Shown here piece after piece: positions 6,535 through 33,606 of a DNA stretch of 64,000 nucleotides (its first letter is position 1; each line of letters starts with the position of its first letter). The position numbers and the translations under genes were made by a program. The notes below the pieces were generated by a model. That model did not search any database. It was not told where the DNA came from and saw only the letters and a list, made by a program, of their open reading frames with translations. Source of the DNA: an uncultured delta proteobacterium. GTDB lineage: Bacteria > Myxococcota_A > Polyangia > Polyangiales > Polyangiaceae. The stretch spans positions 1,472,001-1,536,000 of the forward strand of contig CAWAIF010000003.1 in the NCBI GenBank assembly GCA_963782055.1, read 5' to 3'.

Positions 6535-6559
6535 CGGGCGCCGTCGCGCGGCCCCGTCG

Positions 6560-8002: not shown

Positions 8003-8077
8003 CCGTCGATACTACGCATCGAGGCGCGCGACGCACGGCCCACGGTGAGCGCTGGTATAGTGGCACACGGAGGCCCC

Positions 8078-13588: not shown

Positions 13589-13721
13589 CCGGCCATTGTA
13601 CCCGCGCGATCACGCCGCGCGGTGGATCGTCGCCGGATCACCCCGCGCGCCCGGATTAAGGCCCCTTTAAGAGGTGTCGCCGCGGCCTCGGCTGCAGGGT
13701 GGAAGGCAAGAGGTGCTCATC

Positions 13722-15209
13722 ATGCGAACGACGGTGTCTGGTTTGTTGCTCATCGGAACTCTGGCCCTGGTCGCGTGCGGCGGCAGCCCCGACGACGCGG
13801 CGAGCACTGCGGACGATCTGGTCACGGTCTGCGCGGCCGGTGGCACGCTGGAGGGCGTCGACGTCTCCGAGTTCCAGGGCGCCATCGACTGGAACGCGGT
13901 GCACGCATCCGGCCGCGCCTTCGGCATCGCGCGGGTCAGCGACGGCACGCAGCACGTCGACCCCACCTTCGCCGCCAACTACGCCGGCATGAAGTCGGTC
14001 GGCATGGTGCGCGGCTCCTACCAGTTCTTCCGCGCGAGCCAGGATCCCATCGCGCAGGCGGACCTCCTGCTGTCGCGGATCGGCACGCTCGGCCCGGGCG
14101 ATCTCGCGCCGATGCTGGACGTGGAGGTGACTGACGGCCAGTCCAACGCGCTCATCGACGCGCGCATCGCCACGTGGGTCGCGCACGTGAAGGCGGCGAC
14201 CGGGCGCGACCCGCTCATCTACACCGGGCCGTACTTCTGGCAGCAGATCGGCTCCCCCGACCAGTCGCAGACGACGCTGGTGGTCGCCGACTGGGGCCCC
14301 CAGTGCCCGCTCGTGCCGCCCACGTGGGCGCGCTGGAAGATGTGGCAGTACGCCGACAACGGGCACGTGCCGGGGATCGGGCCGCTCGTGGACCTGGACA
14401 GCTTCGACGGCGACGGCGCCGCGCTCGCCGCGCTCGCCGCCGGCGGGCAGCAGCCCTCCGACCTGCCCGCGCGCACCGACTACGTTGGCATCGCCTCCAG
14501 CCAGGACGGCGGCGGCTACTGGGTGCTCAAGGGCGACGGCGGCATCTTCAGCTTCGGCGACGCCAAGTTCCACGGCTCGGCCGGCGGCTCCGGCATCGCG
14601 CAGCCGGCGATCGCGCTCACGCCGACCGACGACGGCGGCGGCTACTTCATCGCGGCGACCGACGGCGGCGTCTTCACCTACGGCGACGCCGGCTTCCACG
14701 GCTCGATGGGCGGCAAGTCTCTCTCCGGCCACGTGGTGGGCATCGCCGGCGACGGCAGCGGCGGCTACTGGCTCGCCGGCACCGACGGCGGCGTCTTCTC
14801 CTTCGGCGCGGCGTTTTACGGTTCGATGGGCGGTCAGAAGCTGAACGCGCCGGTCGTCGGGATGGCGGCGACGCCGAGCGGGAAGGGCTACTGGCTGGTG
14901 GCATCGGACGGCGGGCTGTTCGCCTTCGGCGACGCCGGCTTCCACGGGTCGATGGGCGGCAAGAAGCTGAACGCGCCGGTGGTGGGGATGGCGGCGACAC
15001 CGAGCGGGAAGGGCTACTGGCTGGTGGCGTCGGACGGCGGGCTGTTCGCCTTCGGCGACGCGCACTTCTACGGGTCGATGGGCGGCACCAAGCTCGCCGC
15101 GCCGGTCACCGGCATGGCCGCGCGCCCGCAGGGCGACGGCTACTGGCTCGTCGCGCGCGACGGCGGCGTCTTCTCTTTCGGCGCGGCCGACTTCCACGGC
15201 AGGCCGTGA
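13722..15209 (+). CDS. GH25 muramidase lipoprotein with six ~42-aa GYWLVASDGG repeats
   Basis: Lipobox LVAC; GVDVSEFQG, LDVE, WQY, VDLD GH25 motifs; C-terminal repeats. Confidence 0.9.
   Translation: MRTTVSGLLLIGTLALVACGGSPDDAASTADDLVTVCAAGGTLEGVDVSEFQGAIDWNAVHASGRAFGIARVSDGTQHVDPTFAANYAGMKSVGMVRGSYQFFRASQDPIAQADLLLSRIGTLGPGDLAPMLDVEVTDGQSNALIDARIATWVAHVKAATGRDPLIYTGPYFWQQIGSPDQSQTTLVVADWGPQCPLVPPTWARWKMWQYADNGHVPGIGPLVDLDSFDGDGAALAALAAGGQQPSDLPARTDYVGIASSQDGGGYWVLKGDGGIFSFGDAKFHGSAGGSGIAQPAIALTPTDDGGGYFIAATDGGVFTYGDAGFHGSMGGKSLSGHVVGIAGDGSGGYWLAGTDGGVFSFGAAFYGSMGGQKLNAPVVGMAATPSGKGYWLVASDGGLFAFGDAGFHGSMGGKKLNAPVVGMAATPSGKGYWLVASDGGLFAFGDAHFYGSMGGTKLAAPVTGMAARPQGDGYWLVARDGGVFSFGAADFHGRP
14823..15062 (+). 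repeat. Near-identical 126-bp tandem duplication inside the GH25 repeat domain
   Basis: tcgatgggcgg..aagctgaacgcgccggt..gggctactggctggtggc..ttcgccttcggcgacgc recurs at 14823 and 14949. Confidence 0.85.
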
Positions 15210-15810: not shown

Positions 15811-17055
15811 TCACACCAGGTGGCTCGCCAGATCGCGCGCCAGCGCGCCGGCGTCCAGGGCGACGCTCGCGTCGAGCATCACGCCGACGCGCACGCGCCC
15901 GGCGTAGCTCATCAGCGTCACCGCCAGCGTGACGCTCCCCGGCGCGGGCGCCCACACCACGATGTCCTTCACCTCGGCGCCGCACACGTGCGCCGGCGCA
16001 GCGGGTCCGCGCACGCTGGAGACGACCGCGCTCGCCTTGCGCGAGAAGAGCGCCACGCCGGCGTGCTCCATCGCGCGGGTGCCCGCGCCCGCCGCCTCTG
16101 CGAGCCGCCCGCCCGCCGCGCCGCCATGGTGCGCGCGCGCGCTCGCGAGCGCGTCCGCCGCCGCGCGCAGGCGGTCGTGGGCGCCGGCGAGGTGCACGGG
16201 GAGCCGGACCCGCGCCGAGCCGAAGTGGTTGCCCTCGCCCGCGCCCGGCGTGCGCACCGGCACGAGCGCGTGGACGCGCAGCCGATCGGCGGCGTCGTCG
16301 TGGCCGAGCGCGCCGCGGAGCGCGCCGGCCACCGCCGCCAGCAGCACCGCGGCGATCGTCGCCTCGCCCGCGTGCGCGCGTGCCTCGAGCGCGTGGAGCA
16401 CTAGGGGCGGGGAGAAGGCGAGCCGCTTGCGCCCGGACGGCGCCACGCGCAGCGCGGTGCGGGGCTCCGGAGCGCCGAGCAGCAGCTTGCGCGCGCCCGC
16501 GACGCCGCCGGCGAGGCGCTCGATGCGCGAGGCGTGGCGCTTCGCCGGCGTGCGCGCGGCGCCCGGCGCGAGCCTCGTCGCCGCGCGCGCCCCCTCGTCG
16601 CTCAGCTCCGCCAGCAGCGCGAGCAGCGCGCCGCCGTCGGCGAGCGCGTGGTGCACGCGCAGCACGATCGCCCCGCCGTCATCGACGCCGTCGACGAGGT
16701 GGAGCTGCCACAGCGGCGCCGCCGGGTCGAGCGGGGTGCTCGCCAGATTGGAGAGCAGCTCGGCGAGCGCGCTCTCGTCGCCGGGCCACGGGCAGCCGAC
16801 GCGCCGCACGAGCTCGCCGGCGTCGAGGTCGGGCCGCTCCGCCCACCGGGGCGTCCGCAGGCCCGCGCGCCCCTCGACCACCACGCTGCGAAAGCGCGCG
16901 TGCGCCGCGGCGAGCCGCCGTGCCACCTCCTCCACCGCGGCGCGCGCGACGCGCCGGTCGAGGAGCAGCGCCGCGACGATCACCATCGGGTTCTGGCGCG
17001 TGCTCATGTGAAGCCGCGCGGCGTCGGCGGCGGCGAGCGGCGTGTTCCTCGGCAT
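15811..17055 (-). CDS. Wax ester synthase/diacylglycerol acyltransferase (WS/DGAT)
   Basis: PLWQLHLV, HHALADG catalytic motif, SSVRGP, MSYAG. Confidence 0.9.
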   Translation of the reverse strand: MPRNTPLAAADAARLHMSTRQNPMVIVAALLLDRRVARAAVEEVARRLAAAHARFRSVVVEGRAGLRTPRWAERPDLDAGELVRRVGCPWPGDESALAELLSNLASTPLDPAAPLWQLHLVDGVDDGGAIVLRVHHALADGGALLALLAELSDEGARAATRLAPGAARTPAKRHASRIERLAGGVAGARKLLLGAPEPRTALRVAPSGRKRLAFSPPLVLHALEARAHAGEATIAAVLLAAVAGALRGALGHDDAADRLRVHALVPVRTPGAGEGNHFGSARVRLPVHLAGAHDRLRAAADALASARAHHGGAAGGRLAEAAGAGTRAMEHAGVALFSRKASAVVSSVRGPAAPAHVCGAEVKDIVVWAPAPGSVTLAVTLMSYAGRVRVGVMLDASVALDAGALARDLASHLV

Positions 17056-17182
17056 GCCCACGGCGTGCCCATCCGCGCGCCCCGCGTCAAGGGCGACGCA
17101 TCGCGGCATTGAGCGGGACATGGTGGCTGCGTCGCAGGCTCAGGGTGGTACGCTTGGGCTGATTTTCGCAGAGGAGGCCGAA

Positions 17183-18973
17183 ATGCGCATCGCCGCTTGC
17201 TTGACCGTCGTCCCCTTCCTGTTCGCGCTCGGATGCGGCAGCAACCACCCCTCCAACTTCGGAGACGTCGACGGCGGCATCACCGACGGCGCGGTGGACG
17301 ACTCGCCCATCATCATCGGCGGCGGCGACGGCGGCGGTGACGGCGGCGGGTGCTCCGTGACCTGCTCGAGCGACCTGCACTCGGTCATCGACTGCCACGG
17401 CAACGTGGTCAAGACCTGCCCGGACAACCAGGGCTGCGGCGCCGGCGGCCAGTGCGTCGACGCGTGCGAGAGCGCGAAGGACAACAAGAGCACCATCGGC
17501 TGCGACTACTACTCGGTGGACCCCGACATCATCCCGGAGGGGCAGGGGGGTTGCTTCGCGGCGTACATCGCCAACACGTGGAACGGCCCGGTCGACATCA
17601 CCGTGCAGCGCAACGGCACCACCCTCCCGGTCTCGCAGTTCGCCCGCATCCCGAAGGGCAACGGGCAGTCGATCACCTACCAGCCGCTGCCGAACAACCA
17701 GCTCCCCGCCGGCGACGTGGCCATCCTCTTCCTCGCCTACGCGGGCTTCGTCGCGTGCCCGGCGGGCATCACCGCGGGCTACACCGCGGGCCCGGCGGAG
17801 GTGAACGGCACCGGGATGGGCAGCGCGTTCCACATCACCACTTCCCGCCCGGTCGTCGCCTACGACATCTTCCCGTACGGCGGCGGACAGAGCGCGGCCA
17901 CCAGCGCCACGCTCCTGCTCCCGACGACGGCGTGGGGCACCAACTACATCGGCGTCAACGCCTACCGCCAGAGCCAGATCGCGGTGGGCGCGGCCCCGTC
18001 GATGGACATCGTCGCCCAGCAGGACGGCACGCAGGTCACCATCAGCCCCACCGCGGCCATCGTGGGCGGCGGTGGCGTGGCGGCCACCGGCAAGGGCGTG
18101 CCGCACACCTACAACCTCAGCAAGGGACAGATCCTGCAGTTCACCCAGCCGGCGGAGCTCACCGGCAGCCCCATCCAGTCCAACTACCCCATCGGCCTCT
18201 GGGGCGCTGCCTCCTGCCTGAACATCGACGTGACCGACTCCGCCTGCGACTCGGCGCACCAGCAGATCCCGCCGGTCAACGCGCTCGGCCACGAGTACGT
18301 CGCCGTCCGCTACCGCAACCGCATCGACAACGGCCCGGAGGAGACACCCCCGTGGCGCATCGTCGGCGCCGTCGACGGCACCAAGCTCACCTACGAGCCG
18401 GCGATCCCCACCGGCGCGCCCAGCACCCTGCAGTCCGGCCAGGTGGCCGAGTTCAAGAGCGCCGGCCCCTTCGTGGTGAAGAGCCAGGACGACAAGCACC
18501 CCTTCTACATCTCCGCGCACATGACGGGCGGCGGCAACTTCGGCGGCATCGGCGACCCCGAGTTCGTCAACGTCATCCCGCCGCAGGAGTACCTGGACTC
18601 CTACGTCTTCTTCACCGATCCCACCTACTCCGAGACGGACCTGGTCGTCGTGAGGGAGAAGGACAAGAACAACACCTTCCAGGACGTCAACCTGGACTGC
18701 GCGGGCAACCTCACCGGCTGGAAGGCCGCCGACTCCAGCGGCAAGTACCAGTACACGCGCATCGATCTGGTGCGCCACAACTTCGCCAAGCAGGGCAACT
18801 GCGACAACGGCCGCCACTTCATCAAGAGCAACGCGCCCTTCGGCCTGACGGTGTGGGGCTGGGGCAGCCTGGAGACCACCGGCTTCAGCACCGCCTACGT
18901 GAGCTACGCCTACCCCGCAGGCGCCAGCATCCAGCCCATCAATACCGTCGTCGTCCCGCCCGTCCCCAAGTGA
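17183..18973 (+). CDS. IgGFc-binding N-terminal domain lipoprotein
   Basis: GAGGAGG RBS; lipobox ALGC; SATLLLPTTAWGTNY, GDPEFVNVIPPQEYL, SYAYPAG. Confidence 0.85.
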   Translation: MRIAACLTVVPFLFALGCGSNHPSNFGDVDGGITDGAVDDSPIIIGGGDGGGDGGGCSVTCSSDLHSVIDCHGNVVKTCPDNQGCGAGGQCVDACESAKDNKSTIGCDYYSVDPDIIPEGQGGCFAAYIANTWNGPVDITVQRNGTTLPVSQFARIPKGNGQSITYQPLPNNQLPAGDVAILFLAYAGFVACPAGITAGYTAGPAEVNGTGMGSAFHITTSRPVVAYDIFPYGGGQSAATSATLLLPTTAWGTNYIGVNAYRQSQIAVGAAPSMDIVAQQDGTQVTISPTAAIVGGGGVAATGKGVPHTYNLSKGQILQFTQPAELTGSPIQSNYPIGLWGAASCLNIDVTDSACDSAHQQIPPVNALGHEYVAVRYRNRIDNGPEETPPWRIVGAVDGTKLTYEPAIPTGAPSTLQSGQVAEFKSAGPFVVKSQDDKHPFYISAHMTGGGNFGGIGDPEFVNVIPPQEYLDSYVFFTDPTYSETDLVVVREKDKNNTFQDVNLDCAGNLTGWKAADSSGKYQYTRIDLVRHNFAKQGNCDNGRHFIKSNAPFGLTVWGWGSLETTGFSTAYVSYAYPAGASIQPINTVVVPPVPK

Positions 18974-20402: not shown

Positions 20403-21650
20403 CAGGGTGCTGAAAAAGTCTCCCCAAAGGGGATCGACAAGCGGATCGCGGCGTGATCTAAATCGGTCATGCGAGGCGAGAACGCGAAGCAATCGTCGAT
20501 GTTGATGCTGATGTCGCCCGAGTCGCGGGTGCCGCGAGGGCACCCTCTTCGGGAGATCAAGAGGATGGCGGACGACGCGCTGGCGCAGCTCTCGCCGATC
20601 TTCGATGCGATGTACGCGGAGGGCGGGCGGCCGTCGATCCCGCCGGAACGGCTGCTCAAGTCGATGCTGCTGATGGCGCTGTACACGGTGCGGAGCGAGC
20701 GCCAGTTCTGCGAGCAGCTCGACTACAACCTGCTGTTCCGCTGGTTTCTCGACATGGACATGGTCGAGGAGAGCTTCGTGCCGACGGTCTTCACCAAGAA
20801 CCGCGACCGGCTGATCGCCCATGACGTGGCGGGCGAGTTCCTTCGCGCGGTCGTTGCCCAGGCGCGGAGCGCCAAGCTGATGAGCAGCGAGCACTTCACC
20901 GTCGACGGCACGCTCATCGAGTCGTGGGCGTCGCTCAAGAGCTTCAAGAAGAAGGGCGACGACGACAAGACGCCGCCGGACGATCCGGGCAACCCGATGG
21001 TGGACTTTCGCGGCGAGAAGCGCAGCAACAAGACGCACGAGTCGACCACCGACCCGGACGCGAAGCTCGCGCGCAAGGGCAACGGGAAGGAGGCGAAGCT
21101 CGCGTACTCGGCCCACGCGCTGATGGAGAACCGCAGCGGGCTGATCGTCGACCTGCAGATGGACGTCGCGGACGGGCACGCCGAGCGCCGCAACGCGCTG
21201 GAGATGCTGGACAACAACCTGCCTGGCTGCCGTCGGATCACGCTCGGCGCCGACAAGGGCTACGACACGCAAGACTTCATCGCGGAGTGCCGCGAGCGGA
21301 ACGTCACGCCGCACGTCGCACAGAACATCACGGAGCGACGTGGCTCGAACATCGACGAGCGCACGGCGAAGCCGGTGGGGTACGCGATCAGCCAGCGCAT
21401 CCGAAAGCGTGTCGAGGAAGTGTTCGGCTGGATCAAGACGGTCGGCAACTTCCGCAAGACTCGCTACGTCGGCCTCGGACCCAACCAGCTCGCAGCGCAC
21501 TTCCTCGCAGCCGCGTACAACCTGGTGAGGATGGCGAAGCTGGTGGAGGAGGGTTGAGACAGCAACCCGGCCGACCGCGCGACGGTCGCGGCCGAGGCAC
21601 GCGACGGGCCGAACGGCTACCATCCAGAGCGCCGATTTTTCAGCACCCTG
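20403..21650 (+). mobile_element. IS5-family insertion sequence, 1248 bp
   Basis: Terminal IRs CAGGGTGCTGAAAAA / TTTTTCAGCACCCTG; CTAG target duplication at 20399-20402 and 21651-21654. Confidence 0.95.
20469..21557 (+). CDS. IS5-family DDE transposase
   Basis: GRPSIPPERLLK..SERQ..YNLLFRWF (DUF772-like), VDGTLIESWAS, ADKGYD, RKRVEEVFGWIK. Confidence 0.95.
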   Translation: MRGENAKQSSMLMLMSPESRVPRGHPLREIKRMADDALAQLSPIFDAMYAEGGRPSIPPERLLKSMLLMALYTVRSERQFCEQLDYNLLFRWFLDMDMVEESFVPTVFTKNRDRLIAHDVAGEFLRAVVAQARSAKLMSSEHFTVDGTLIESWASLKSFKKKGDDDKTPPDDPGNPMVDFRGEKRSNKTHESTTDPDAKLARKGNGKEAKLAYSAHALMENRSGLIVDLQMDVADGHAERRNALEMLDNNLPGCRRITLGADKGYDTQDFIAECRERNVTPHVAQNITERRGSNIDERTAKPVGYAISQRIRKRVEEVFGWIKTVGNFRKTRYVGLGPNQLAAHFLAAAYNLVRMAKLVEEG

Positions 21651-22484
21651 CTAGGGGCTCGTCGTTGACCCCCCGTCGCTCATCCCCCGATGCGGCAAGA
21701 CGATCGAGGCTGGTCGCGCAAGTGGGTAACCAGAAAACGGGCCGATAGATAGCCTCATGTAGTGATCCTCTACGCACTTCTTCTCCGTAATGGAGACTTG
21801 CGCAGGGGCATAGGTTGGAATCCGCTGAACGCTGACGATGTCAACGAACCGAACCCGCCCGGTCGGAAGAAAGTAGAGCATCAGGCCCCACGCAGCAGGG
21901 GGCTCGCCCGTTCGGGCGCATTCGTCCGGGGTAGGAAGCCGCTGAGCCGCGTCGGGTGCCACCAGCGGAATAGGTACGCAATCACGCAGCTCATCATCTG
22001 TCGGCGCCGTTGTCAGGACGTGCACGCCGACCAGACGCGGTTCCTGTCCGAGTTTCCCATCCACAGGGTAGACAGGGTAGACAACCGTACCTTCCGCAAT
22101 GACGCGACCAGAGCAGGACGCCTCCTCCCCGTCGGCGAATTGCACGGGTAGCTCGCCAATGTAACTGCCACTGGCCGTGTGCGACAACTCCCCCTCCACT
22201 GCAATGTGGTCTTTGACGCCAGGTTCCAGTCCGATTTGTCTGGATACGTGGAAGCAGTTGGAATGAGCACGACGGAAAACTTGGTGACGACAGGGGCCGG
22301 ACGACTTGACACCAATCGACGGTTGCGGTACCGACTTCTCCCCGCTCCCAGTGTCTTGACCCGCGTCGAGGCCAAGCGACGACGAATGGTCCGTGCTCTC
22401 GCAAGAATTCGCCCAGCAGAGCAAGCCGGCTGCCAGCGCGATTTGCATGGCACAACGGGACATGTGTGGCGTAATCGCAATCAT
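21651..22484 (-). CDS. Cys-rich putative lipoprotein, candidate immunity protein of the RHS toxin
   Basis: ATG 22484 lies 4 nt after the toxin stop; MQIALAAGLLCWANSC signal-like segment; start may instead be one of the next two Met codons. Confidence 0.6.
   Translation of the reverse strand: MIAITPHMSRCAMQIALAAGLLCWANSCESTDHSSSLGLDAGQDTGSGEKSVPQPSIGVKSSGPCRHQVFRRAHSNCFHVSRQIGLEPGVKDHIAVEGELSHTASGSYIGELPVQFADGEEASCSGRVIAEGTVVYPVYPVDGKLGQEPRLVGVHVLTTAPTDDELRDCVPIPLVAPDAAQRLPTPDECARTGEPPAAWGLMLYFLPTGRVRFVDIVSVQRIPTYAPAQVSITEKKCVEDHYMRLSIGPFSGYPLARPASIVLPHRGMSDGGSTTSP
21826..21859 (+). repeat. Direct repeat copy 2 (partner at 19269..19302)
   Basis: Encodes RVRFVDIV on the minus strand within the candidate immunity gene. 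Confidence 0.9.
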
Positions 22485-25400
22485 CCATCTACCACGGCAG
22501 TGTCCCCGGGGTGCCGTGCGGGGCATCGGTGCTATACGGACGGAGAAATCGATAGCCGACGATATATCCGTAGTGCTCTCCGGGAAGGTTCTCCCTGGAC
22601 TCGTCATTATCGCTTGGCCATGCCTTGTACATGCTCGGGTCCCAGTTGTTCGGATGGGTGTGAAGAGACCCAACGGACGACCAGGCGGTGCCCCAAAAAC
22701 CGACGAGCACGTCGGCGTCCGCAATGTTGTAGGCGTCATTCTTGCGTTCGTTAACGTTGTCCGGTGAGCGTCCAGGAACGCCGAAGGTGTCGCAGTCCGC
22801 CGCGGCTTGCCCCTGCGCCTTAGGGTCTCCTCTCCGATAGGCGCCATAAACATAGCCCCAGCCTGCAAGCGTTGGCACCCGATAGAGCCGTGCGCCATTT
22901 TCCACGCCATATGTCTGGCCGAGCCACCACAGGTCTCCTGCAGCTCCCTGGGCTGCCGCATCGGGAGTCAAGTACACCTGCCAAGGCTTCCGGCCGTCCG
23001 GATCGATGCAGTTCACCGGGTCATTCCCGCAGTACGCGTAGAAGTTCAGCCCGCCGCCGAAGCGGATCGGGTCCTTGCTCAGCCAGCGGTGCTCCCAGCC
23101 ACTGTAGTCCCGTGCGCCCATGTGGTAAATCGCCGGGTAGTAATCGACCAGGCCGCCGGCGAAGCCGAAGGGCTGGTAAACGAGCGCCGGGCCGGTCATC
23201 GCGCCGAAGTCGTTGTAGTAGGTGTATGGGCCCTCGATGATGTTGCCGGGTGTTCCGCCGCACGCCGGGCCGCTCAGGCAAATGACTGCGCGCGCCGTGC
23301 CGACGCCGTCGCTGACGATGCGCAGGATGCTACCATCGGCACGGTAGACCAGATCCGGGATGTTCTGCTTCGTCACGTAGGCGAAGTGGGCCGTGACGGC
23401 CCCGCTGCTGTCCAGGGTCGCGATGACTCGGTCGCCCTGGTAGAGGTACCCCGCGCTCTCGGCACCGGGCGGCTGGCTGCCGCTGCTCGTGCGGAAGACG
23501 AGGCGCCCCTGCCCGTCGACGGCGTAGTTGAGCGTCACGTTGCTGGATGGATCGGAGTAGTGACGGAGGTTGCCGAGGGGATCGTAGCCGAAAGTCTGGG
23601 TCTGCCCGCCTCGGTGGCGGTTGACGGCCTCGCCGTTGGAGGAGTAGTCCCAGGTCCAGTACCCGTCATTGATGAGCCGATCCTGCGCGTCGTAGGTCCA
23701 CGCGTTCCCGTTGCCGCCGTTGCCGTCGGCGTCATACGGAGTGTTCACGGGGGGAGTCGAGCAGCCGGAGGTGGTGGAGTAGGCGAGGAAGGTCTTGTAG
23801 GTGGTGTCGTAGTGGTAGGTCGTGACACAGGCGGTGCCGTTGTTGAAGGTCTCGCGCTTCGTCGCCACGCGGCCGCTGGCAGGATCGCGAGTGTAGACCA
23901 GAGCATACCGCGGCTGAGCATCGTAGGTGATGGTGTCGGTGAGCAACGCCCCGTACCGGTCGTAGGTGAAGTCCTCGTGGAGGAGATCCGTGTCCGTACT
24001 CGCGAGCATGCGGTTGTAGCCTTGCGCGCCGCGGTTGAGCGTCATGGTCATGATGCCGCCCACATCCACCGCGCTCAGCGCGCCGTCGCCGTCCCGGTCG
24101 AAGGTGTAGCCGAGGGCACCGTCGATGTCGCGCGTGTGCAGCCTGCCGTAGCCGTCGTACCCGTAGTTGACGCTGCGCGTGGCGCTGGGCGAGGTGAGCC
24201 CGTAGGTCTCCTGCGTCAGCATCGAGCCGTCGTAGCTGTAGGTGAGATTGACCTGGCCGTTGTCGAGGGTATGCAGCTGCCCCGTCGACAGGTACGTGTA
24301 CTGGTTGGTCACGGTGCCGGTGAACGGTGCGAAGTAGCTCGCGGTGGACGGACGTCCGGCGCCGTCATACGCATAGCTCACGGTGCGACCCGGTTCCTGC
24401 ATGCTCGTCATGAGGCCATCCAGGTCGTAAAGGTAGCTGGTCGGACCGGTGGCGCCAACGGACGGCGGCGTGTAGGTGTCGAGCAGGTCCAGAGGGGTCG
24501 CGGAGAACTGGTGCCACTTTCCCGCGGGGGTGTCTGCCCACGTTACATTGCCGTTCGCGTCGTAGTACCGGAACAACGTCCGGCCAGGAATCCTGACTCG
24601 CTGGGCTCGACCCACGCCATCGAACATCGTGAAGTCGTAGGTACCAATGCCCGGCACATCGACGGAGGACACGGCCCCGGTCCACGGATCATACGTGAGC
24701 GTCGTGATGCGCGAGTTGACAGTGTACTTCCAGGGCTGTCCGGTGGGGTAGTAGTCGATCTGTACGGGGTAGAGTTCGGCGCTCGGCCCCGGCACCTTCC
24801 CCGTCACCTGGATGCTGGACGGACGCTCGTGCTGGCTGTCCAGCGTGATTTCCGTGCTGGCGCCGGCGGCGCTGGTCGCGGTGAGCTTCGACTGGCTCGA
24901 GTCGTACTGGGCGGTCGAGGTGAGGGTGTTGTTGTCGATGTCCGAGACCGTGGTGGTGTCCGTCTCGGACGTCACGTTGTCGGTCTGCGGGTCGGTGGTG
25001 ACCATGCTCGCGTTGGTGGTGGTGACCGTCTTGCTGCCGTCGATCACCACGCGCTTCGCCGGGTAGCTCGCGTTCACGCCGAACCGGGGGTCGGGGGCGT
25101 AGGTGCTGGAGATTTGGGTTCCGTCGCGGAGCGAGACGTTTTCCGATCCGTCGGCGTACGTCGTGTGGGTGGACAGCAGGCCCGCCGGATCCGTGATGGT
25201 CCGGGACTCCACCTGATTCGCTCCGTCTCCCCCGGTCGTGCCGCGCGTGGTGTCGACGGAGTAGGTGGTCGATCGGGACTCCGCCGTGGTCAGCGCGACG
25301 TTCCATCCGCTGCCCGTCACCGGCATCGAACGCGCCAGGGTGACCCCGGGCGAGCTCTGCGGGTTCTTGTCGTTGGTCAGTAGGCCGAAGCTGTCGTATG

Positions 25401-28400
25401 TGAAGTGGTGGTGCTGGCCCTTCGCGTCGGTCAGGTCGGTGAGCAGGCCACCCGTGCCATAGCCGAGCTGGATCGTCTCGTTGTTGGCGTTGACGACTCC
25501 CGCGAGGTAGAGCGTGCCGCCGTAGTCTTGGAATTCCAGAGTCGTCGGCTCGTTACTCGCGATCCCGGTCGCTGGCGTGATGGTCTTGCAGTCGTCGAAA
25601 CCGCAGGACAAGCCGGTGTCGGTGATCTGCGTGACGTTGCCGTAGTCATCCGTGATCGAGGACAACACGCCCGAGGTGTACGCGAGGGTCTCGAGCGGCA
25701 CGCCTCGGTAGCGGCTGAGGGTGGCGACGTGCTGCCCGCTGCTGTCGAACTTGTAAATGGCGGAGCCGTCGGGGCTCAACAGGCGGTAGCCCGTGATAGG
25801 GTCCGGTGTGCCGAGGGGCTGCAAGGCCCTGACGATCGTGCCCGTGTTGCCGTCGCCGCCGGGTTCACGGCTGGTGTAGAGCAGCGATCCGTCCTGCCCG
25901 TCGGCCAGTCCCACCAGCTCCGAGCCGCCGCCGTGACCGCCGCCCGTGGCAGGCGCGCCGTCCACGTAGGCGATCGTATTCTGCCCGTTGTTGACGATGC
26001 AGCTGCTACCTACCACCGTTGACATGGTCCCGTCTGGCTCGATCCGGCGCACTGCAGCCTGGTCCTTGTCGGCGATGTACAGCGCTCCGGCCTTCCACAG
26101 GAGCCGCTGGGGCGCGCCGAGGGGCGCTAGCGTTGCCGCGTTCCCGTCGCCCCAGTCATGAGGGCAGGTGTATTCACCGACACCGTAGTCGAATCCGTTG
26201 CCGCCCGCGGCGACGTGCAGCTTCCCATCGGTCGAGACACGAAACACCACCGCGCGACCGAAGGAGCTCAAGGCGTTCTCGGAGAAGTAGACGTCGCCAT
26301 TCGGGGCGACGGCCACGCCTTCGACGTCCTCTAGCGCATAGCTCGTCGCGGGCTTTCCCGCCATCGTGGCGAGGTCCGCCAGGTTGCCATTCCCAGAGCC
26401 GGCGATCGTCTCCAAAACGCCGTCAGTCCGTACGCGCCGGACCTCTGACTCCACCTTCCCGCGGTTATCGACGAACACGACGCTGCCATCGGGGGCGGTG
26501 GTGATCGCGCTCACGGTGTTCAGGGAGGCCGCCGTTGCCAGGCCCCCGGCGGCCTCGAAGTGCCCATCCGTTCGGCAGCCGAGCTGGGAAGGCCGCGCGT
26601 CGCCGGCGAGCACCGTCGTGTGAGCGCTGCTCCAATGGGGTGGATTGTCCGTCGGGGCGTCCACGTGGAGCACGTCGCATGCGCCTCCGACGAGCACCGC
26701 GCCGTCCCGCGACGGAGCCACGGCCTGGCCGTTCACGTACACGCTCCCGAGGTTCGTGCCGTTGCTCGGCACCGGTGGGGCGCCGGCATCGACGCTCGAC
26801 ACGATCGTGTTGCCGGGAAACGCCCTCACCGCGCCGCTGTAGAGTCCGATGTCGGCGGCGAGTATGGTTCCGTTGCTGTCGCTCGTGGCCGTCAGCCCTC
26901 CCAGCTGATCCGAGGTGTCCTCCTGCCGCACCATGTCCGGGAGCTCGGTCGCGGTTCGCTTCTCTCCGTACCCCGTCCAGAGCGTCCCGCTGCTCGGCTC
27001 GTACACGTGCTCCGCGCTCAAGGTCCAGCCCCCGAAGCCGAGCGGCTGCGCGTCCAGCGCGTCCAGGTGCACGTCGTAGTCGCGGCGGAGGAAGATCAGC
27101 CGCTCGTTGCGGTTGCCGTCCACGATCACGTCGCCACCGGTCCCGTAGGAGCCGAAGGTGGGGGTGAGTCCCGACGGGGTCGCCGGGTACGCGTAGGCCA
27201 CGCGGACGTGGGCCACGACCGAGCCCTGGATCGGGCGGCCGTACGCGTCCTCGCGGTTCCACGCCCACGAGATGGACTGGTTCTTCTGCGGCACGCCATT
27301 CTTCGTCACATCCAGGTTCGTGAAGAGGGCACGCTGGCCCGCCACGTCGATCTCCACCTCCGCGTAGTTTGGGGCAGGACTCAGCGTGGTGTCATCGGTG
27401 TACGGGACCGTGATGACGGGGTGGAAGCCCCGCTGCGTCTCGCTCCGGTAGTGCAGGCTGTAGGGAGTGCCGGCGATCGGGATGTCCTCGCCCAACACCT
27501 GGTTCTCGCACTCGATGATGGATCCGTGGTGCTTGCAGCCCTTGTCCTTGGATGTGCTCTTGGAGGGACTCAGGTTGGGCGGAGGCTTCGCGCCCGCCTC
27601 CGGCCCGGCGGACCAGTTGAGGTCCAGGCCGGAGAAGTGCGGCATCGGGACGCGCCAGACCTGCTTCTTGTTGGCGTTGGGGTAGACCGTCGCGAGCTCC
27701 TGGCGCTCTCCATCGGTGATGGGCGGCGACTCCAGGGAGTAATCGCTGATCTCGGTCGTGCAGCCGGTGGTCCCGCGCCCTAGCTGCGCCTTCGGGGGGT
27801 TGCCGCCGTCCAGGCCGATGATGCAGTAGACCCTGCCGTTCATCTCCGGCTGCCAGACGCCACGGGATCGATCGTAGCTGCCCGTGGGTATCACGTTCTT
27901 GTAATGACCGTGGCCGTCCACGTCCGTGTCGTCCATCGAGACGCCGGTGAAGTTGTCCAGGTAGAAGAAGACGTCGTGATTGAAGTGGACGGTCGCGTCG
28001 CCGGCCTCGAGCATCGCCGCCTCGAACGCGTAGGTGTAGGCGCTCTGCGGCGGTAGCTCCCCGGGAAGTGCCAGCCGGCCCTCGGACCCCACGGTGTACT
28101 CCGTGACGTGCATGGTCACGGTGGCCCCGCAGTTTGGACATTCCTGCTGATTCACCGTCGTGCCCGGCGGTATCAAGATCGTCGCGGTCCTCTGCGTATC
28201 CAAGTCGGTGTGCGGGTTGCCCTGGACGACCTGCCAGCCGCCGGCGTTGAGGGCGATCGACGTGGTGTTCTCCGGCTTCGTGAGGGCGATGTCCGGGAGC
28301 ACGCTCCAGTCGAGCCACCGCGTCTCCGCGCGCCGCTGGACCGTGAGGTACGCGGGGCTGTTCACGTGGTCCGACAGCTCCACCACGTACGTGGTCCCGC

Positions 28401-28836
28401 CGTTCACGGCCATGTCGAACCAGCCGTCCGCCCGCGTCTGGGTCGTGCCGTACTCCGGGTGGTTCAGGATGCTCACGGTGATGTCCCCGAGGTTGACGAG
28501 CGGATTATCGCGCTCGACGACGTGCCCGCGGATGATGGAGACGTGGCTCTTCACCATGTTCGCCGTGACGCCGGTCTGGATCTGGCTGACCGCGTCGAGC
28601 ATGCCCTGCCCGATGTCGCTCGGGACCGTGCCGCCGCCCGGGTAAGGAGTGACCCCGTTCACCCCGTTCGGCACCCCGCAGCCCTGCATGGGCGTGTTCA
28701 CGGGGTGCCCGTCGACGCAGGTATCGGTCGTGCAGGAGTTGCCGTCGTTTACCGGCACGTCCCCTCCGGTGATCTGCTGCCCGCTCTCGTTGCAGTAGGT
28801 GACCTGGTAGGCGTTGCCGTTGCACTCCGTCCCGAT

Positions 28837-30352
28837 GTGTCTGCTTAGCGGTGTCGCACACTGTGGGTCCATTCTTCGTTCCTGATGCGAGAAGTTCTTT
28901 CCATGGGACCTGATCGGGAGCATCCCGGATCACGTGACGCCCGAGCAGCGGATCCAGGAGCTGGAGCAGGAGAACGCCGCGCTTCGCGAGGAGCTGGCGA
29001 AGCTGCGCAAGGAGATCGAGGAGTGGAAGCGGGGGTTCCGCGAGCGCGGGAAGCGGCGGACGTCGCGTTCCGAGGGTCGGCGGGCGGCCTCGGGCAAGCC
29101 ACGCGGCCGCAAGGCGGGCCATGTCGGATCGCGGCCCGCCGCACCGGCCCACGTCGACGACGAAGTCGTGCACGAGATGCCGGCGACGTGCAGCTGTGGC
29201 GGGGCAGTCGTGGCGACGGGCGAGACGGACAGCACAGTCGTCACCGACATCCCAGTGGTGCAGCCGCGGCAGACGCATCACGTGGCGCACGTCGGCAGCT
29301 GCGAGGTGTGCCACAAGCGCGTGGTCGCGAAGCTGCCGGGCGCGCCGGCCGCGGGCAAGAGCGTCGCCGCGGTGTCGTTCGGCCCCAACGTGCAGGCGAT
29401 GGCGCTGGACCTGCGCTTCGAGCGCGACATGCCGCTGGGCAAGATCAGTGCGTTCCTCGGACAGTGGCTCGGCATCTCGATCACGACCGGCGGCCTGGCG
29501 CAGATGTTCGACCGATTGCGACGCCGCTCGGCGCCGAGCTACGACGAGCTGGTCGACGCGGTGCGCGCATCGCCCGTGGCGGGCCTCGACGAGAGCGGCC
29601 ATCGACAGGACGGCGTGCCGGGTTGGATGTGGCTGATGCGCACCGACCGCGTCTCGGTCTTCCGCGCCGAGCTGTCGCGCGGCGCGTGGGTCGCCGAGTC
29701 GATGCTCGGCGCGAGCTTCAAAGGCGTCCTGTGCACCGACTTCTACGGCGTGTACACGAGTCACGACGGCTGGACCCACGCCTACTGCGGTGCGCACACC
29801 ATCCGCGAGGCGAAGAAGATCGCCGAGCTCACCCCGTGCGCCGCGACCGAGGAGTTCCGCGACCGACTCATCGGCTTCTACGTCGCGGGCAAGCACGCCG
29901 CGGCGAGCGGCGATCCCGAGCAGCGCCGAGGCGCGCGCATCCGCCTCGGCCATCTCATCAGCAGCACCAACTTCGTGGAGTTCCCGGACATCGTCCGGCT
30001 GCAGGAGCGCCTCGACGAGCACAAGGTGGGGGTGACGCTCTTCATCGACCGCCCCGACGTCCCGGCCACGAACAACGCGACCGAACGCGACATCCGCGCC
30101 CACGGGCGGCACCGCGCGATGACCGGCGGCACGCGCTCGGCCGCCGGCAGCGCCACCCTGGCGCACTGGATGAGCATCACGCAGACGCGGCGCAAGTGCC
30201 GGCTCCCGCTTCGGGGCTTCGTCATCGGGCTGTACGAAAGTCACCTCCACGGCAAGCCGCCTCCGTCTGTCTTTGCCCACTAGCCGGCGAGTCCTCCGAC
30301 GGTCGACGTCACGCCCGGGCCGCGGGCCGTCTTCCGGCCGCTAAGCAGAGAC
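28837..30352 (+). mobile_element. IS66-family insertion sequence (single-ORF, ISBst12-like), 1516 bp
   Basis: IRs GTGTCTGCTTAGCGG / CCGCTAAGCAGAGAC (14/15); 8-bp target duplication GTCCCGAT at 28829-28836 and 30353-30360. Confidence 0.95.
28934..30283 (+). CDS. IS66-family transposase
   Basis: N-terminal coiled coil, GRKAGHVG, Zn-finger Cys pairs, LDESG, TDFYGVY, CGAHTIRE, TNNATERDIR. Confidence 0.95.
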   Translation: MTPEQRIQELEQENAALREELAKLRKEIEEWKRGFRERGKRRTSRSEGRRAASGKPRGRKAGHVGSRPAAPAHVDDEVVHEMPATCSCGGAVVATGETDSTVVTDIPVVQPRQTHHVAHVGSCEVCHKRVVAKLPGAPAAGKSVAAVSFGPNVQAMALDLRFERDMPLGKISAFLGQWLGISITTGGLAQMFDRLRRRSAPSYDELVDAVRASPVAGLDESGHRQDGVPGWMWLMRTDRVSVFRAELSRGAWVAESMLGASFKGVLCTDFYGVYTSHDGWTHAYCGAHTIREAKKIAELTPCAATEEFRDRLIGFYVAGKHAAASGDPEQRRGARIRLGHLISSTNFVEFPDIVRLQERLDEHKVGVTLFIDRPDVPATNNATERDIRAHGRHRAMTGGTRSAAGSATLAHWMSITQTRRKCRLPLRGFVIGLYESHLHGKPPPSVFAH

Positions 30353-31093
30353 GTCCCGATGACGGTGCCTGCCGGGACCAGCTCCGAGTTGTCGATCACC
30401 CCGTTGACGCACTTGTCCACGGTGCAGGGGTCGCCATCGTCGGCGTTGAAGTCCACGTCGGCCTCCACCTGAGCGGACTCCACTCCGGGCTGCGTAACGC
30501 CCGCTGAGAGCTCGAGGTACGACGTCGTCGTCGGACTTCCCGCGGAAAGCGCGTTCGTGCAGATCGTGAGGGGTAGCGGGTTGGTCTCCAGCCCCGTCTC
30601 CTGCGTGCGCCCGTATGTGCAGTAACCCCCTTCGACCGTGAACGTGGCCCAGATCGAGTCGCCAGCCTGGACGTTGGCGCTGACGACGTTCACGGTTGCG
30701 GGCACCAGGACATGCCGCTCGCTGCCCAGCGATAGGTAGTAGCTGCCGTTGCCGGACCATGCCAGAATCCCCTGATTCCCGCAGGCGGCGGCGAGCGGGC
30801 TCTGCGTGCTGGCCGTCTGCTCGTCGGGGGAACCGCCGCACGAGAGGCCGATCATCACCGCGAGGATCAGCATCGCCGTCGAACGCCCGGAGATGCGCAG
30901 CTTCGTGAGTGCCATGACTCCCTCCTCCCCGGCGACTGTGCGCGTCCGCGGGGGCCGGCGTCAACCCAGTTAGATCCTGCGACACTACGTTGTTGCACAT
31001 GGATGTGTCTGAATGGGCTCGGCGCTCGGGTGACGATATTGGTCAATAATATCGGGAGATGAGATACGAGTGCTCGGCAATCTGTCACAACCA

Positions 31094-31113
31094 TCTACTC
31101 CCTAGGGAGTAGA
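31094..31113. promoter_or_regulatory. Perfect 20-bp palindrome, probable transcription-factor operator
   Basis: TCTACTCCCTAGGGAGTAGA in the AT-richer divergent intergenic region between the toxin gene and the RCC1 gene. Confidence 0.6.
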
Positions 31114-31200
31114 GGCATCCGTTCAGGTGGACGCCGTGCCACGGCCGGTCGCGGTGGATAGATGGGCGCGACGCGTGGTACCGCGTGGTACTCTCGGGCC

Positions 31201-33606
31201 ATGAGGCGGCAGGTCCGGAGACGAGGCGCGATCGTCGTCGCGGCGACGGCCCTCTCCCTCTGCCACGCCTGCGGGGGCACGACCGCGACCGCGCCCCCGC
31301 ACGTCGTGCTCGGTGCGTCCGGGCTCGACTTCGGCCTCGTCGACTGCGGCGGCGCCGCGTCGACCGAGCCGCTGACCATCGCGAACACGGGCGGCTCCCC
31401 GCTGACGTGGGAGGCGAGCGTGGGCAAGACGGGCGCCTTCTCCCTGGATGGCGCCCCCGCGGGCACGCTCGCGCCGGGAGAGACGACGAGCCTCTCGGTG
31501 AAGGCGAAGGTCCCAGACGGGGCGCCCGCGGCCGAGGCGCTCGACACCACGCTCTGGGTGACCACCAACGATCCGGCGAACGGGACGAGCAGCATCCCGC
31601 TCCACCTGATTTCCCGCGGCGCCATGCTCACCGTGAAGCCCGCCACCGCCGACTTCGGCCAGATCCCGCTCGGCCTGACGGCGCCGGACATCGCGGTGAC
31701 CGTCACCAACTCGGGCAACGACGCTGTCGCGCTGGCCTTCGGCGCGCCGCAGGATCCGCAGTTCACCGCGGGGTGGGACGGCGCCCCCGCCGCGGCGAGC
31801 CTGCCGCCCGGTGGCGAGCTCACCGCGACGCTCGGCTTCACACCGACCACCGACAAGGCGGTGGCGGACGCGTCCGCCCTCCTCGTGACCGGCGCGGTGT
31901 GCGCCGCGCCGCAGACGGTCGCGATCAAGGGCGAGGGCACGAAGGGGATCGCGGGCGTGAGCCCGGGCCTGCTCGACTTCGGCGTGGTCGGGTGCGCGAC
32001 GGCGGCGCCGCCGCAGGAGGTGACCCTGCTCAACGCGGGCAACCAGGCCTACGACTTCACCGCCACGCTGTCGCAGGGCGGAAGCTCGCCGTACGTGGTC
32101 ACCCCGAGCAGCGGCACCGTCCCGCCCAAGTCGCAGGTGCAGCTCGCGGTCGCGCCGAAGACCGTCCCCCCGCAGTCCGCGCTGACGCCGGACCTCTACG
32201 ACGACACGCTGGCGATCATGACGACCGCGCTCGACGACGTGCCGCACGCGGTCGCGTTGCAGGAGTCGGCGGGCGGCGCCATCCTCTCCACCAGTGCGCC
32301 CCTGGTCTTCTCGCGGCTCGCCGTGGGCGCCACCCCCGCGACGCAGCAGCTCGTGATCACCAACGCGGGCAACCAGCCGGCGCAGGTGACCTTCAGCTCG
32401 CCCGAGCCCTTCTCCGCCGCGGGCCCGGTGCTCGTCCCCGCGGGCGGCACGGCGACGACCACCATCTCCTTCACGCCCGACCCCGGAAGCCTGGGCCCGG
32501 TCACCCAGGACCTCGGGATGAGCACGACCGATCCCGTGTGCGCGCCGATCAGCGCCGCGAACGCGACCGCGACCACGTACGACCGCGCCAGGATGCTGGC
32601 GGCGGGGGACACGCACGCTTGCGCGACCGCGGTCAGCGGGGTGACGTATTGCTGGGGACGCAACTTGGAAGGTGAGCTCGGCGACGGCACCACCCTCATG
32701 AGAAAGAAGCCGGTACCCGTGAGCGGCCTGAAGGACGTTCTCGGCTTGGGGCTGGGGCAGTACCATTCGTGCGCCGTGGTGCAGGGCGGCACGGTCGAGT
32801 GCTGGGGCGCAGACTTCGATGGCCAGCTCGGCGGCGGGAACACCGGAGGATACTCCACCAAGCCCGTCGCGGTGTTGAACCTCGCCGATGCCACCCAGGT
32901 GGCAGGTGGCGGTCAGTCATCCTACGCGCTGACGTCCGCAGGAGGCGTCGTGGCGTGGGGCCTCAACGGCGCCGGCCAGCTCGGCGACGGAACGACGGTC
33001 GACTCCAACGTCCCCGTGACGGTCTCGGGCATCACCGATGCGGTGCAGGTCGCCGGACGACGATGGACGGCCTGCGCCCTGCGTGCCGGTGGAGGCGTCT
33101 GGTGTTGGGGAGACTATTACCTCGGCGATGGCACGAAGGGATCGTCGGCCGTGCCGGTGGACACGGGGCTGACGGACGTCGTGCAGGTGGGTGGCGGACG
33201 GGGTACGGAGGGGAATGGTTGCGCGGTCGAGACGACGGGTGGGGTGGCGTGTTGGGGCTACAACCCGTACTCGACGACGCCGAGCTCGTTCGGGGGGCTC
33301 ACCGACGCAGTGCAGGTCGGGGTCGGCGAGGAGTTCGCATGCGCGCGTCGCGCGGCAGGCGGCGTGATGTGCTGGGGCGACAACTCGTGGGGACAGCTCG
33401 GGCACGGGGGGTATTTTTACTCATGGGTGCCTGTTGAGGTGTCGGGGGTGACCGACGCGGCGAGCATCGCCGTGGGCGCCAACTTCGCGTGCGTGATGAA
33501 CGGCGACGGCACGTTGCTCTGTTGGGGAAGTGGCATCAGCTATGAACTCGGCGACGGCGACCATGGCAATACCCCCAACCCGATGCCCGTCACCGGCTTC
33601 GACTGA
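31201..33606 (+). CDS. Lipoprotein with tandem Ig-like (ASH/choice-of-anchor D-like) domains and RCC1 repeats
   Basis: CHAC-GG lipobox; repeated LDFGxVxC..I/LxNxG; repeated HxCA..VxCWGxNxxGQLG. Confidence 0.88.
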   Translation: MRRQVRRRGAIVVAATALSLCHACGGTTATAPPHVVLGASGLDFGLVDCGGAASTEPLTIANTGGSPLTWEASVGKTGAFSLDGAPAGTLAPGETTSLSVKAKVPDGAPAAEALDTTLWVTTNDPANGTSSIPLHLISRGAMLTVKPATADFGQIPLGLTAPDIAVTVTNSGNDAVALAFGAPQDPQFTAGWDGAPAAASLPPGGELTATLGFTPTTDKAVADASALLVTGAVCAAPQTVAIKGEGTKGIAGVSPGLLDFGVVGCATAAPPQEVTLLNAGNQAYDFTATLSQGGSSPYVVTPSSGTVPPKSQVQLAVAPKTVPPQSALTPDLYDDTLAIMTTALDDVPHAVALQESAGGAILSTSAPLVFSRLAVGATPATQQLVITNAGNQPAQVTFSSPEPFSAAGPVLVPAGGTATTTISFTPDPGSLGPVTQDLGMSTTDPVCAPISAANATATTYDRARMLAAGDTHACATAVSGVTYCWGRNLEGELGDGTTLMRKKPVPVSGLKDVLGLGLGQYHSCAVVQGGTVECWGADFDGQLGGGNTGGYSTKPVAVLNLADATQVAGGGQSSYALTSAGGVVAWGLNGAGQLGDGTTVDSNVPVTVSGITDAVQVAGRRWTACALRAGGGVWCWGDYYLGDGTKGSSAVPVDTGLTDVVQVGGGRGTEGNGCAVETTGGVACWGYNPYSTTPSSFGGLTDAVQVGVGEEFACARRAAGGVMCWGDNSWGQLGHGGYFYSWVPVEVSGVTDAASIAVGANFACVMNGDGTLLCWGSGISYELGDGDHGNTPNPMPVTGFD

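Follow-up and report, generated by a model that had tools for sequence, protein, structure and literature searches.

A predicted lipoprotein-type teneurin-like protein gene split by an IS66-family insertion sequence in an uncultured myxobacterial genome

Do two open reading frames (ORFs) lying on either side of a transposase gene still spell out a single protein, and what would that protein be? This question is raised by a locus at positions 22489–30915 of a 64,000-nucleotide stretch from an uncultured delta proteobacterium of the family Polyangiaceae (GenBank assembly GCA_963782055.1, contig CAWAIF010000003.1, positions 1,472,001 to 1,536,000). This whole stretch is hereafter called the window, and positions refer to it unless another contig or locus is named; the source genome, 97% complete, has a total length of 7.58 Mb on 3 contigs. 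The evidence presented here indicates that the locus, called gene A, is very probably a lipoprotein-type teneurin-like protein (TLP) gene split within codon 188 by an insertion sequence (IS) of the IS66 family, whose whole form would be an envelope protein, likely lipid-anchored, carrying a 167-residue C-terminal tip in a YD shell.

The interruption can be delimited from the DNA itself. The octamer GTCCCGAT, read directly, is found twice in the window, at 28829–28836 and at 30353–30360, and the element between the two copies has imperfect terminal inverted repeats (GTGTCTGCTTAGCGG at 28837–28851, with its partner at 30338–30352), its ends pairing over 18 nt with 89% complementarity. It holds a single ORF on the plus strand (28934–30283), which encodes a 449-residue IS66-family transposase matching PF03050 in Pfam (E 1.9e-34), in addition to zf-IS66, and NF033517 in NCBIfam (E 3.7e-65, 220 bits, with the cut-off at 180). 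The genome contains 14 full-length copies of the element (98–100% identical), whose ends are the same throughout, and a perfect 8-bp duplication flanks 10 of them; the limits of the element are, therefore, not a matter of guesswork. The copy in gene A differs from its nearest sister copy by 2 bases in 1516 (99.87% identity). The element resembles the single-ORF type of IS66 in its DDE_Tnp_IS66 and zf-IS66 domains, 8-bp duplication, short terminal inverted repeats and N-terminal leucine-zipper-like stretch, whereas, unlike IS66 relatives, it has no tnpA/tnpB accessory ORFs and measures 1516 bp only; the single-ORF type is that of the ISBst12-like group. Four full-length copies and one 65-bp end fragment were observed within about 80 kb of contig 3 (6.16–6.24 Mb), a region rich in this IS.

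On both sides of the element, gene A is otherwise open. Its 5′ piece (30915 to 30355, 187 codons) and its 3′ piece (28836 to 22489, 2115 codons plus stop) lie on the minus strand in the same codon phase, and the stretch to be removed, namely the IS with one copy of the duplication, amounts to 1524 bases, a multiple of 3. The remaining 563 and 6340 nt make up 2301 codons in one open frame of 2300 amino acids, the joined protein having been given an X at the break in the computations. The IS falls between two Cys repeats, cutting the signal peptide, the N-terminal domain (N-domain) and the first repeat off from the remainder. A preliminary description of this DNA had proposed an IS66 element removable by excision and an exact in-frame join into 2300 amino acids; the first proposal agrees with the ends, the duplication and the transposase family, and the second is upheld by the codon phase, by the 1524-base removal and by intact paralogs that are colinear with the joined gene.

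These paralogs provide an independent test of the join. Four TLP genes, A to D, are present in the genome, with a common scaffold and different tips. Paralog B (contig 3) is intact, encodes 2286 residues and is 92% identical to A over the N-terminal 187 residues and 88% over the body, while paralog C (contig 3), also intact, encodes 2253 residues, with 55% and 81% identity over the same parts. When B and C were aligned over the junction of A, they proved colinear, with 0 residues missing in A. Purifying selection is evident from the ratio of nonsynonymous to synonymous substitution rates (dN/dS), which in the comparison of A with B amounts to 0.21 over the 5′ piece and 0.25 over the body. Colinearity with B and C and the low A–B ratio together indicate that both pieces evolved as one coding gene until recently. 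Paralog D (contig 2, L024 3812–12256) is 39% identical and would encode 2306 residues if read through; it is split near codon 129, again in frame and within the N-terminal anchor module, by the same IS (L024 10351–11866), here with the duplication ACTGCAAG.

The copy of gene A has most likely lost its function recently, because its 3′ product, if made, would be without a signal peptide; export of the protein has, in all likelihood, ceased. A different view would be that the insertion is no dead end, either because it acts as a reversible switch by precise excision or because it drives expression from an internal start, yielding a signal-less cytoplasmic 3′ product put to another use. This view draws on the fact that the same IS sits in frame in the same 5′ region of two of the four paralogs: 2 of the 14 copies fall within TLP genes (0.36% of the genome), and the chance of at least 2 doing so is 1.2e-3 in a post-hoc test. 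It also draws on the public gene call P0007, in which the 3′ piece begins at an ATG within the end of the IS and gives 2127 residues without a signal peptide. However, DDE elements in general rarely excise precisely; no consensus common to the ten duplicated octamers was found when one was sought; and a shell that lacks a signal peptide has no way to the envelope. No metagenome contig was seen over the empty site, which is uninformative either way: the contigs of four soil-metagenome runs mostly held the IS at other sites, along with a few short flank pieces, and none spanned the junction or the empty site. Altogether, we consider a switch or an internal-start product very improbable and keep to recent loss of function; the presence of 2 of the 14 copies in TLP genes would be accounted for if selection on these costly toxins were relaxed or negative.

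The identity of the joined protein (protein A, or TLP A) was established by sequence and by predicted structure. In a search of PDB sequences, the best match was the teneurin-like protein 9ifo_A (E 4.6e-142, with 9pt5_A at about 5e-142), followed by teneurins 2, 3 and 4 and Ten-m at E 1e-12 to 1e-25 (1e-19 to 1e-25 for teneurins 2, 3 and 4). The PDB entries 9IFO and 9PT5 correspond to BiTLP of Bacillus inaquosorum, from the study of bacterial TLPs by Raoelijaona et al. (Nat Commun 2026; PMC13018210). Residues 83–636 of the 3′ piece align without a break to residues 383–927 of this Bacillus protein (263 bits), spanning TTR, TIP and FN-plug, and a second alignment (207 bits) covers residues 760–1948 and reaches residue 2143 of the Bacillus protein. 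Within the first, the residues C-K-H-H-G-S of protein A are aligned on C719...G723|S724, and the Ser of this FN-plug site is invariant in the 66-sequence and 33-sequence alignments of relatives. The NHL region could be aligned by the PDB sequence search to residues 505–916 of teneurin-4, and it forms all-beta blades in an AlphaFold2 (AF2) model of residues 83–1180 of the 3′ piece. This model of 1098 residues, built from the 33-sequence alignment and taking in only the start of the YD shell, has a mean predicted local distance difference test score (pLDDT) of 79.5; when it was compared with the PDB by Foldseek, the best 16 matches were all teneurins or a TLP (E 4.6e-42 to 2.5e-15, probability 1.00), although the TM-scores are low, at about 0.4, because the domains are placed differently.

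Along protein A, the order is signal peptide and lipobox, N-domain, two Cys repeats of the form DxxxC(T)xDxC, TTR, TIP and FN-plug, NHL, YD shell, Rhs core and tip. The end of the Rhs core, DPIR...PVNCIDPDG, is a predicted aspartyl self-cleavage site that would free the tip; it keeps the Rhs core cleavage motif DPxG...PxxxxDPxG, of whose first part G-to-R variants are described (PMC13018210). No PAAR, VgrG or Tc module was found in protein A by profile searches of Pfam and NCBIfam. Therefore, what the preliminary description had said of the protein holds on every one of these points: a teneurin-like RHS/YD toxin carrier is what PF25020, PF25021, 9ifo_A and the teneurin matches show, the lipobox, both Cys repeats, and the TRADGWFDMAVNGG, GGWTL..H, NHL, YD, Rhs core and tip elements are present in the order given there, PAAR and VgrG are missing as it had stated, and the Foldseek comparison with teneurins, which it had recommended, retrieved a match to FN-plug, NHL and YD. 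The coordinates are collected in Table 1.

Table 1. Positions of the features of gene A, its insertion and its surroundings (window positions, or locus positions where a locus is named)
Feature	Position	Strand	Basis or remark
Signal peptide, 25 residues MALTKLRISGRSTAMLILAVMIGLS, followed by lipobox Cys26 (codon 30838-30840)	30841..30915	-	translation and lipoprotein rule; predicted
N-terminal domain, residues 27-150	30466..30837	-	shared with paralogs B and C and with P0012
Cys repeat 1, DGDPCTVDKC	30409..30438	-	translation; Dicty_CTDC match weak (Pfam, E 0.0037, below cut-off)
Target-site duplication, 5′ side of the gene	30353..30360	.	GTCCCGAT; 8-bp duplication test
IS66-family insertion sequence, 1516 bp	28837..30352	+	ends, duplication, Pfam and NCBIfam
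Target-site duplication, 3′ side of the gene	28829..28836	.	GTCCCGAT
Cys repeat 2, DGNSCTTDTC	28717..28746	-	translation
Teneurin TTR-like domain, 3′-piece residues 96-183, holding TRADGWFDMAVNGG	28288..28551	-	PF25020, E 1.9e-13, 50.6 bits (cut-off 27)
TIP insertion and FN-plug, 3′-piece residues 184-636, holding GGWTLSAEH	26929..28287	-	alignment to Bacillus TLP
FN-plug autoproteolysis site G438/S439 (3′ piece)	codons 27520-27525	-	alignment to G723-S724 of Bacillus TLP
NHL beta-propeller, 3′-piece residues ~637-1157 (limits approximate)	25366..26928	-	PF25021, E 4.8e-9, 36.1 bits (cut-off 27.1)
YD/RHS-repeat shell (start approximate)	23218..25365	-	RHS_repeat and YD_repeat matches (Pfam, NCBIfam)
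Rhs-associated core, 3′-piece residues 1874-1948	22993..23217	-	TIGR03696, E 4.6e-18, 65.5 bits (cut-off 32.5)
Polymorphic C-terminal tip, 167 residues and stop	22489..22992	-	divergence point of the paralogs
Candidate immunity gene P0006, 277 residues	21654..22484	-	starts 5 bases past the TLP stop; composition
Perfect 16-bp palindrome TACTCCCTAGGGAGTA, candidate operator	31096..31111	.	~180 bp upstream of the start codon
Another transposase gene, unrelated to that of the IS (DUF772 and DDE_Tnp_1)	20469..21557	+	Pfam, E 8.5e-20 and 2.9e-16; 3′ flank of locus A
Mobile genes behind B: tyrosine recombinase and IS91-type transposase	L022 269-2077		
Mobile gene behind C: Transposase_29	L023 198-2333		
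Mobile fragment behind D: IS91 zinc-domain	L024 2716-3114		

Relatives of TLP A are numerous but distant. At E <= 1e-20, 2066 proteins were recovered among 7993 scored candidates, the closest ones outside its own genome being about 35–40% identical, and a contig scan with the 3′ piece matched one 2.6-kb contig of a metagenome-assembled genome (41% identity over residues 87–185). The TTR model PF25020 has 4 matches in the source genome, and among 40 relatives it is matched in 13, of which 6 are among the 24 genomes of the family; no match was found in the six other members of the genus (G001–G006, 84–98% complete). The distribution is patchy and has the appearance of a TLP set that this strain or species acquired and expanded on its own.

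The lipid anchor was assessed with a PROSITE-type lipoprotein rule written for this analysis. Protein A passes this rule, with Cys26, a K/R within its first 7 residues and a hydrophobic region of mean Kyte-Doolittle value 2.57, as do the other three paralogs, each of which starts with a positively charged n-region and runs through a hydrophobic stretch to (G/A)LS-C, with the Cys as residue 26; among the nearest outside relatives (P0010 and P0012–P0018), five of the eight pass. In Myxococcus, the residues that retain lipoproteins in the inner membrane are Lys at +2 and Ala at +7 (PMC5562445), and protein A has neither, since its +2 is G and its +7 is E. We infer that TLP A would be exported by Sec/SPII and sorted to the outer membrane. 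Directly behind the lipobox there is always the N-domain of 124 residues, shared with B (E 9e-75), C (E 2e-19) and P0012 (E 7.5e-13) and without a match in Pfam and NCBIfam. Thus, the lipid anchor claimed for this protein is at least rule-conforming in A to D, and the N-terminus encoded at 30353–30915 is not absent from homologs, P0012 having the N-domain behind a lipobox of its own.

At the opposite end, A, B and C are 81–88% identical up to NCIDPxG and unrelated beyond it, the paralogs parting ways exactly after this motif. The GC content at third codon positions (GC3) is 0.67 in the tip and 0.66 in the downstream gene, against 0.89 in the gene body. Tip A has the motif HTHP...SDND, and tip B (L022 3058–3525) has HTHP...SPSD with a Prok-JAB match at E 0.009, below the cut-off; a word-index search with tip B returned nothing. 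ESM-Atlas look-alikes of tip A score 0.90–0.95, and some of their clusters carry DUF4329, Prok-JAB or Toxin-JAB1. Tip A could on this basis be a JAB/MPN-like metallopeptidase, an assignment that we regard as tentative and more doubtful than not; it has neither a JAB/MPN family-model match nor the full E...HxH...SxxD metal site, a working resemblance being possible. Tips C and D may be membrane-active, since they start with long hydrophobic segments.

The gene behind tip A, P0006, has a composition like that of the tip (GC1/2/3 = 0.64/0.51/0.66), and its product opens with a signal-peptide-like N-terminus containing the hydrophobic stretch AMQIALAAGLLC. The ORF behind tip B (L022 2522–3058) also opens with a hydrophobic signal-like stretch, but no likeness was found between it and P0006. 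P0006 has no family match in Pfam, and its top ESM-Atlas score, 0.82, is uninformative. An overlapping 164-residue frame (21994–22488) was considered as the immunity gene instead and rejected, its codon score being -0.69 against -0.23 for P0006.

The traits found here can be set against those of the published family. TLPs are described from 139 genomes in six phyla, and a genome may have as many as four copies; among the species of Myxococcota, more than 20% have a TLP; 96% of them have the TIP domain, and Sec/SPII lipoprotein targeting is predicted for those of Gram-negative bacteria such as Myxococcota (PMC13018210). Their tips are polymorphic, of about 15 kDa, and three of nine tested, in addition to the tip of a Bacillus TLP, were toxic in E. 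coli; the immunity gene lies directly downstream, and a toxin/immunity logic was demonstrated experimentally for TLPs other than the present one (PMC13018210). The predicted Sec/SPII signal and the four copies found in the source genome are both as reported there. In TLP A as in BiTLP, TTR, TIP, FN-plug, NHL, YD shell and Rhs core follow one another in this order, and further traits that TLP A has in common with BiTLP and other TLPs are the two self-cleavage motifs, a tip that is short and polymorphic, and a small gene directly after the tip. On the other hand, its N-terminal module consists of a lipid anchor, the N-domain and two Cys repeats, whereas a published TLP has BIG or S-layer-type modules there, and its tip and candidate immunity protein, unlike those of published TLPs, are sequence orphans. 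TLP A is, therefore, a divergent, IS-split addition to a TLP family in print since 2026 (PMC13018210), and its core reading is right but not new, because the family, its enrichment in Myxococcota and the Sec/SPII prediction are already published there. A word search of the alignment file of that paper gave no protein of the source genome, and the words 'transposase', 'insertion sequence' and 'pseudogene' do not occur in its main text.

The likeness extends to the metazoan teneurins 1–4 and Ten-m, which share the TTR, FN-plug, NHL and YD-shell superfold with TLP A in sequence and in predicted structure. Ahead of TTR, TLP A has a Cys-rich stretch where teneurins have epidermal growth factor (EGF) and Cys-rich regions; none of the Pfam models tested matched the Cys repeats as EGF domains. 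In contrast to teneurins, which have a type II transmembrane helix and a cytoplasmic domain, TLP A has a lipid anchor; additionally, it contains the TIP insertion, which teneurins do not, its tip is unrelated to ABD/Tox-GHH, and it keeps the Rhs aspartyl cleavage motif that is lacking in mammalian teneurins (PMC13018210).

How such a protein would work can be proposed as follows. The whole TLP would be exported by Sec/SPII and sorted to the outer membrane, self-cleavage would leave the tip caged in the shell, and contact with neighbouring bacteria would release the tip into them, in kin discrimination or competition, while the 277-residue P0006 would protect the producer. P0006 looks exported, so that, if it does confer immunity, the site of action of the tip would be the periplasm or envelope and not the cytoplasm. 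Several observations weigh against this proposal. The lipobox calls of A to D depend on a PROSITE-type rule set down for the purpose. Tip A has no detectable relative: a phmmer search of 1.84 billion representatives returned only the tip itself and one spurious repeat protein, searches of Pfam and NCBIfam gave no match at E <= 1, and a search of PDB sequences gave none either. When the genome was searched in six frames with the DUF4329 and Toxin-JAB1 models, nothing was found even at E <= 10, and a single-sequence AF2 model of the tip was unusable (pLDDT 34.6), so that a JAB-like tip is a lead and not a result. P0006 has no rule-conforming lipobox, neither a homolog nor an identical record was found for it in a 5.8-billion-protein collection, and the ORF may be mis-called. 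Furthermore, PMC13018210 leaves open the delivery route of TLPs, as well as a non-toxic role in adhesion or signalling for those of social bacteria.

As regards delivery, the SitA lipoproteins of Myxococcus are an obvious comparison. Like TLP A, they are myxobacterial, with a type II signal and lipobox, a polymorphic toxin end followed by an immunity gene (in TLP A a candidate one), and adjoining mobile elements. To our knowledge, SitA has no YD shell. The preliminary description had suggested that the protein might be moved in the SitA manner: placed in the outer membrane, it would be passed to kin by TraAB-dependent outer-membrane exchange (OME), and its shell would free the tip in the periplasm of the recipient. 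This would agree with the outer-membrane-type residues at +2 and +7 of the lipobox, with the exported-looking candidate immunity protein, which would fit periplasmic action, with the finding that OME moves outer-membrane lipoproteins in general (PMC5562445), and with the fact that no other delivery machine is evident. SitA tips, it should be said, are mostly nucleases acting in the cytoplasm (PMC5562445).

However, SitA orthologs are reported only from species with traAB (PMC5562445), and no TraA/TraB-like pair could be recognized in the source genome by domain proxies. The two proteins were sought by architecture only, with PA14, MYXO-CTERM and OmpA taken as the domain layout and without reference sequences. 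Above the cut-off, MYXO-CTERM has 19 matches in the source genome, which marks it as myxobacterial, and 0 in 14 control genomes. By these proxies, in a genome 97% complete, neither of the two PA14 matches is near any of the 19, and all 17 OmpA matches are farther than about 15 kb from any of them. No MYXO-CTERM ORF was found to be strongly Cys-rich, the highest value being 6.5% Cys in an ORF of 168 residues, and the two longer, moderately Cys-rich ones that were scanned (4.0% and 3.0% Cys) have a TSP3-repeat domain and GH25/FG-GAP domains. TLPs also occur in Gram-positive bacteria and in many phyla without OME, and, in the library searched, a query for OME together with teneurin-like proteins returned one unrelated paper and none linking the two. 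The suggestion of SitA-like delivery was thus not confirmed, and we judge it highly improbable.

A precedent in the phylum is offered by the Rhs4 and Rhs5 proteins of M. xanthus, which, like TLP A, are large Rhs/YD proteins with signal sequences, encoded on mobile elements (PMC10433427); they are larger, at about 4000 residues. [quoted passage not shown] The Rhs effectors of T6SS and the BC cocoons of Tc toxins share with TLP A the YD shell and, on the reading proposed here, the self-cleavage of the Rhs core and a caged toxin, and weak PDB matches link the core of TLP A to Rhs proteins and to YenC2; in contrast to these systems, TLP A has no PAAR, VgrG, TcdB or SpvB and does have a signal peptide and the NHL and FN-plug domains.

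The four TLP genes are also linked by a sequence upstream of them. The palindrome TACTCCCTAGGGAGTA stands about 180 bp upstream of all four and is invariant even amid the unrelated sequence upstream of D. Six exact copies are found in the genome, about 100–190 bp upstream of six large predicted lipoprotein genes, the sites other than that of gene A being at 2241063, 6338097, 2916523 and 5312023 on contig 3 and at 12412 on contig 2. The two non-TLP genes behind it encode Kelch-repeat and TSP3-repeat proteins of 1029 and 1296 residues with lipoprotein-like N-termini. No copy was found in 40 relatives, and the reversed sequence, used as a control, was found nowhere. The palindrome is a candidate operator of a genome-specific regulon; a scan upstream of gene A for a sigma-70-type promoter and for a terminator found none. 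Beyond the palindrome, and divergent from gene A, lies a gene on the plus strand (31162–33606) whose 814-residue product has an RCC1-like propeller as well as Ig-like (HYDIN/ASH) domains, so that the palindrome stands between the two genes.

A set of six large predicted lipoproteins under one shared palindrome would also suit a TLP that is mainly a protein of cell-cell adhesion or recognition, with a tip that is not a delivered toxin, a role left open for social bacteria in PMC13018210. The evolution of the 5′ piece is in line with such a role: its dN/dS is 0.71 for A against C and 0.71–0.75 for A or B against C, compared with 0.25–0.26 for the scaffold, so the fast-evolving part that holds the lipid anchor, the N-domain and the first Cys repeat may be a recognition surface. 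Nevertheless, both self-cleavage motifs are kept, the tips are swapped between paralogs and followed by small unrelated ORFs, as is characteristic of toxin-immunity modules, and three of the nine tips tested, as well as the Bacillus tip, proved toxic in E. coli (PMC13018210). A mainly adhesive TLP is in our view very unlikely, and contact-dependent release of a caged tip is preferred. This preferred mechanism can be widened into a scheme that we put forward as speculation and hold to be improbable as a whole. In this scheme, one TACTCCCTAGGGAGTA-binding factor would control a regulon peculiar to this genome and made up of giant lipoproteins of the envelope, the four TLPs among them. As lipid-anchored cages, the TLPs would need no secretion needle: through contact or fusion of outer membranes they would pass on to neighbours tips that act in the periplasm, here an orphan JAB-like peptidase whose immunity protein is exported. 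The IS insertions in the anchor module would represent recurrent silencing of single paralogs.

The find is a modest one: toxin genes interrupted by an IS are nothing unusual, and the literature already covers the TLP family, how abundant it is in Myxococcota and its prediction as lipoproteins. Its value lies in the genome being a natural test set for the question of TLP delivery, with two intact and two IS-silenced lipoprotein TLPs that have one scaffold and four tips, and with a shared candidate operator; the signal-like N-termini encoded downstream of two of the tips would point to a target in the envelope.

Mobile-element genes are found on the 3′ side of all four TLP loci. Nearby in the window, three further plus-strand genes for exported proteins were observed: one for a GH25 lysozyme-type protein (13674–15209), one for a protein with an IgGFc-binding-type domain (17042–18973, E 2.9e-98), and a 993-residue ORF with MYXO-CTERM at its end (6353–9469).

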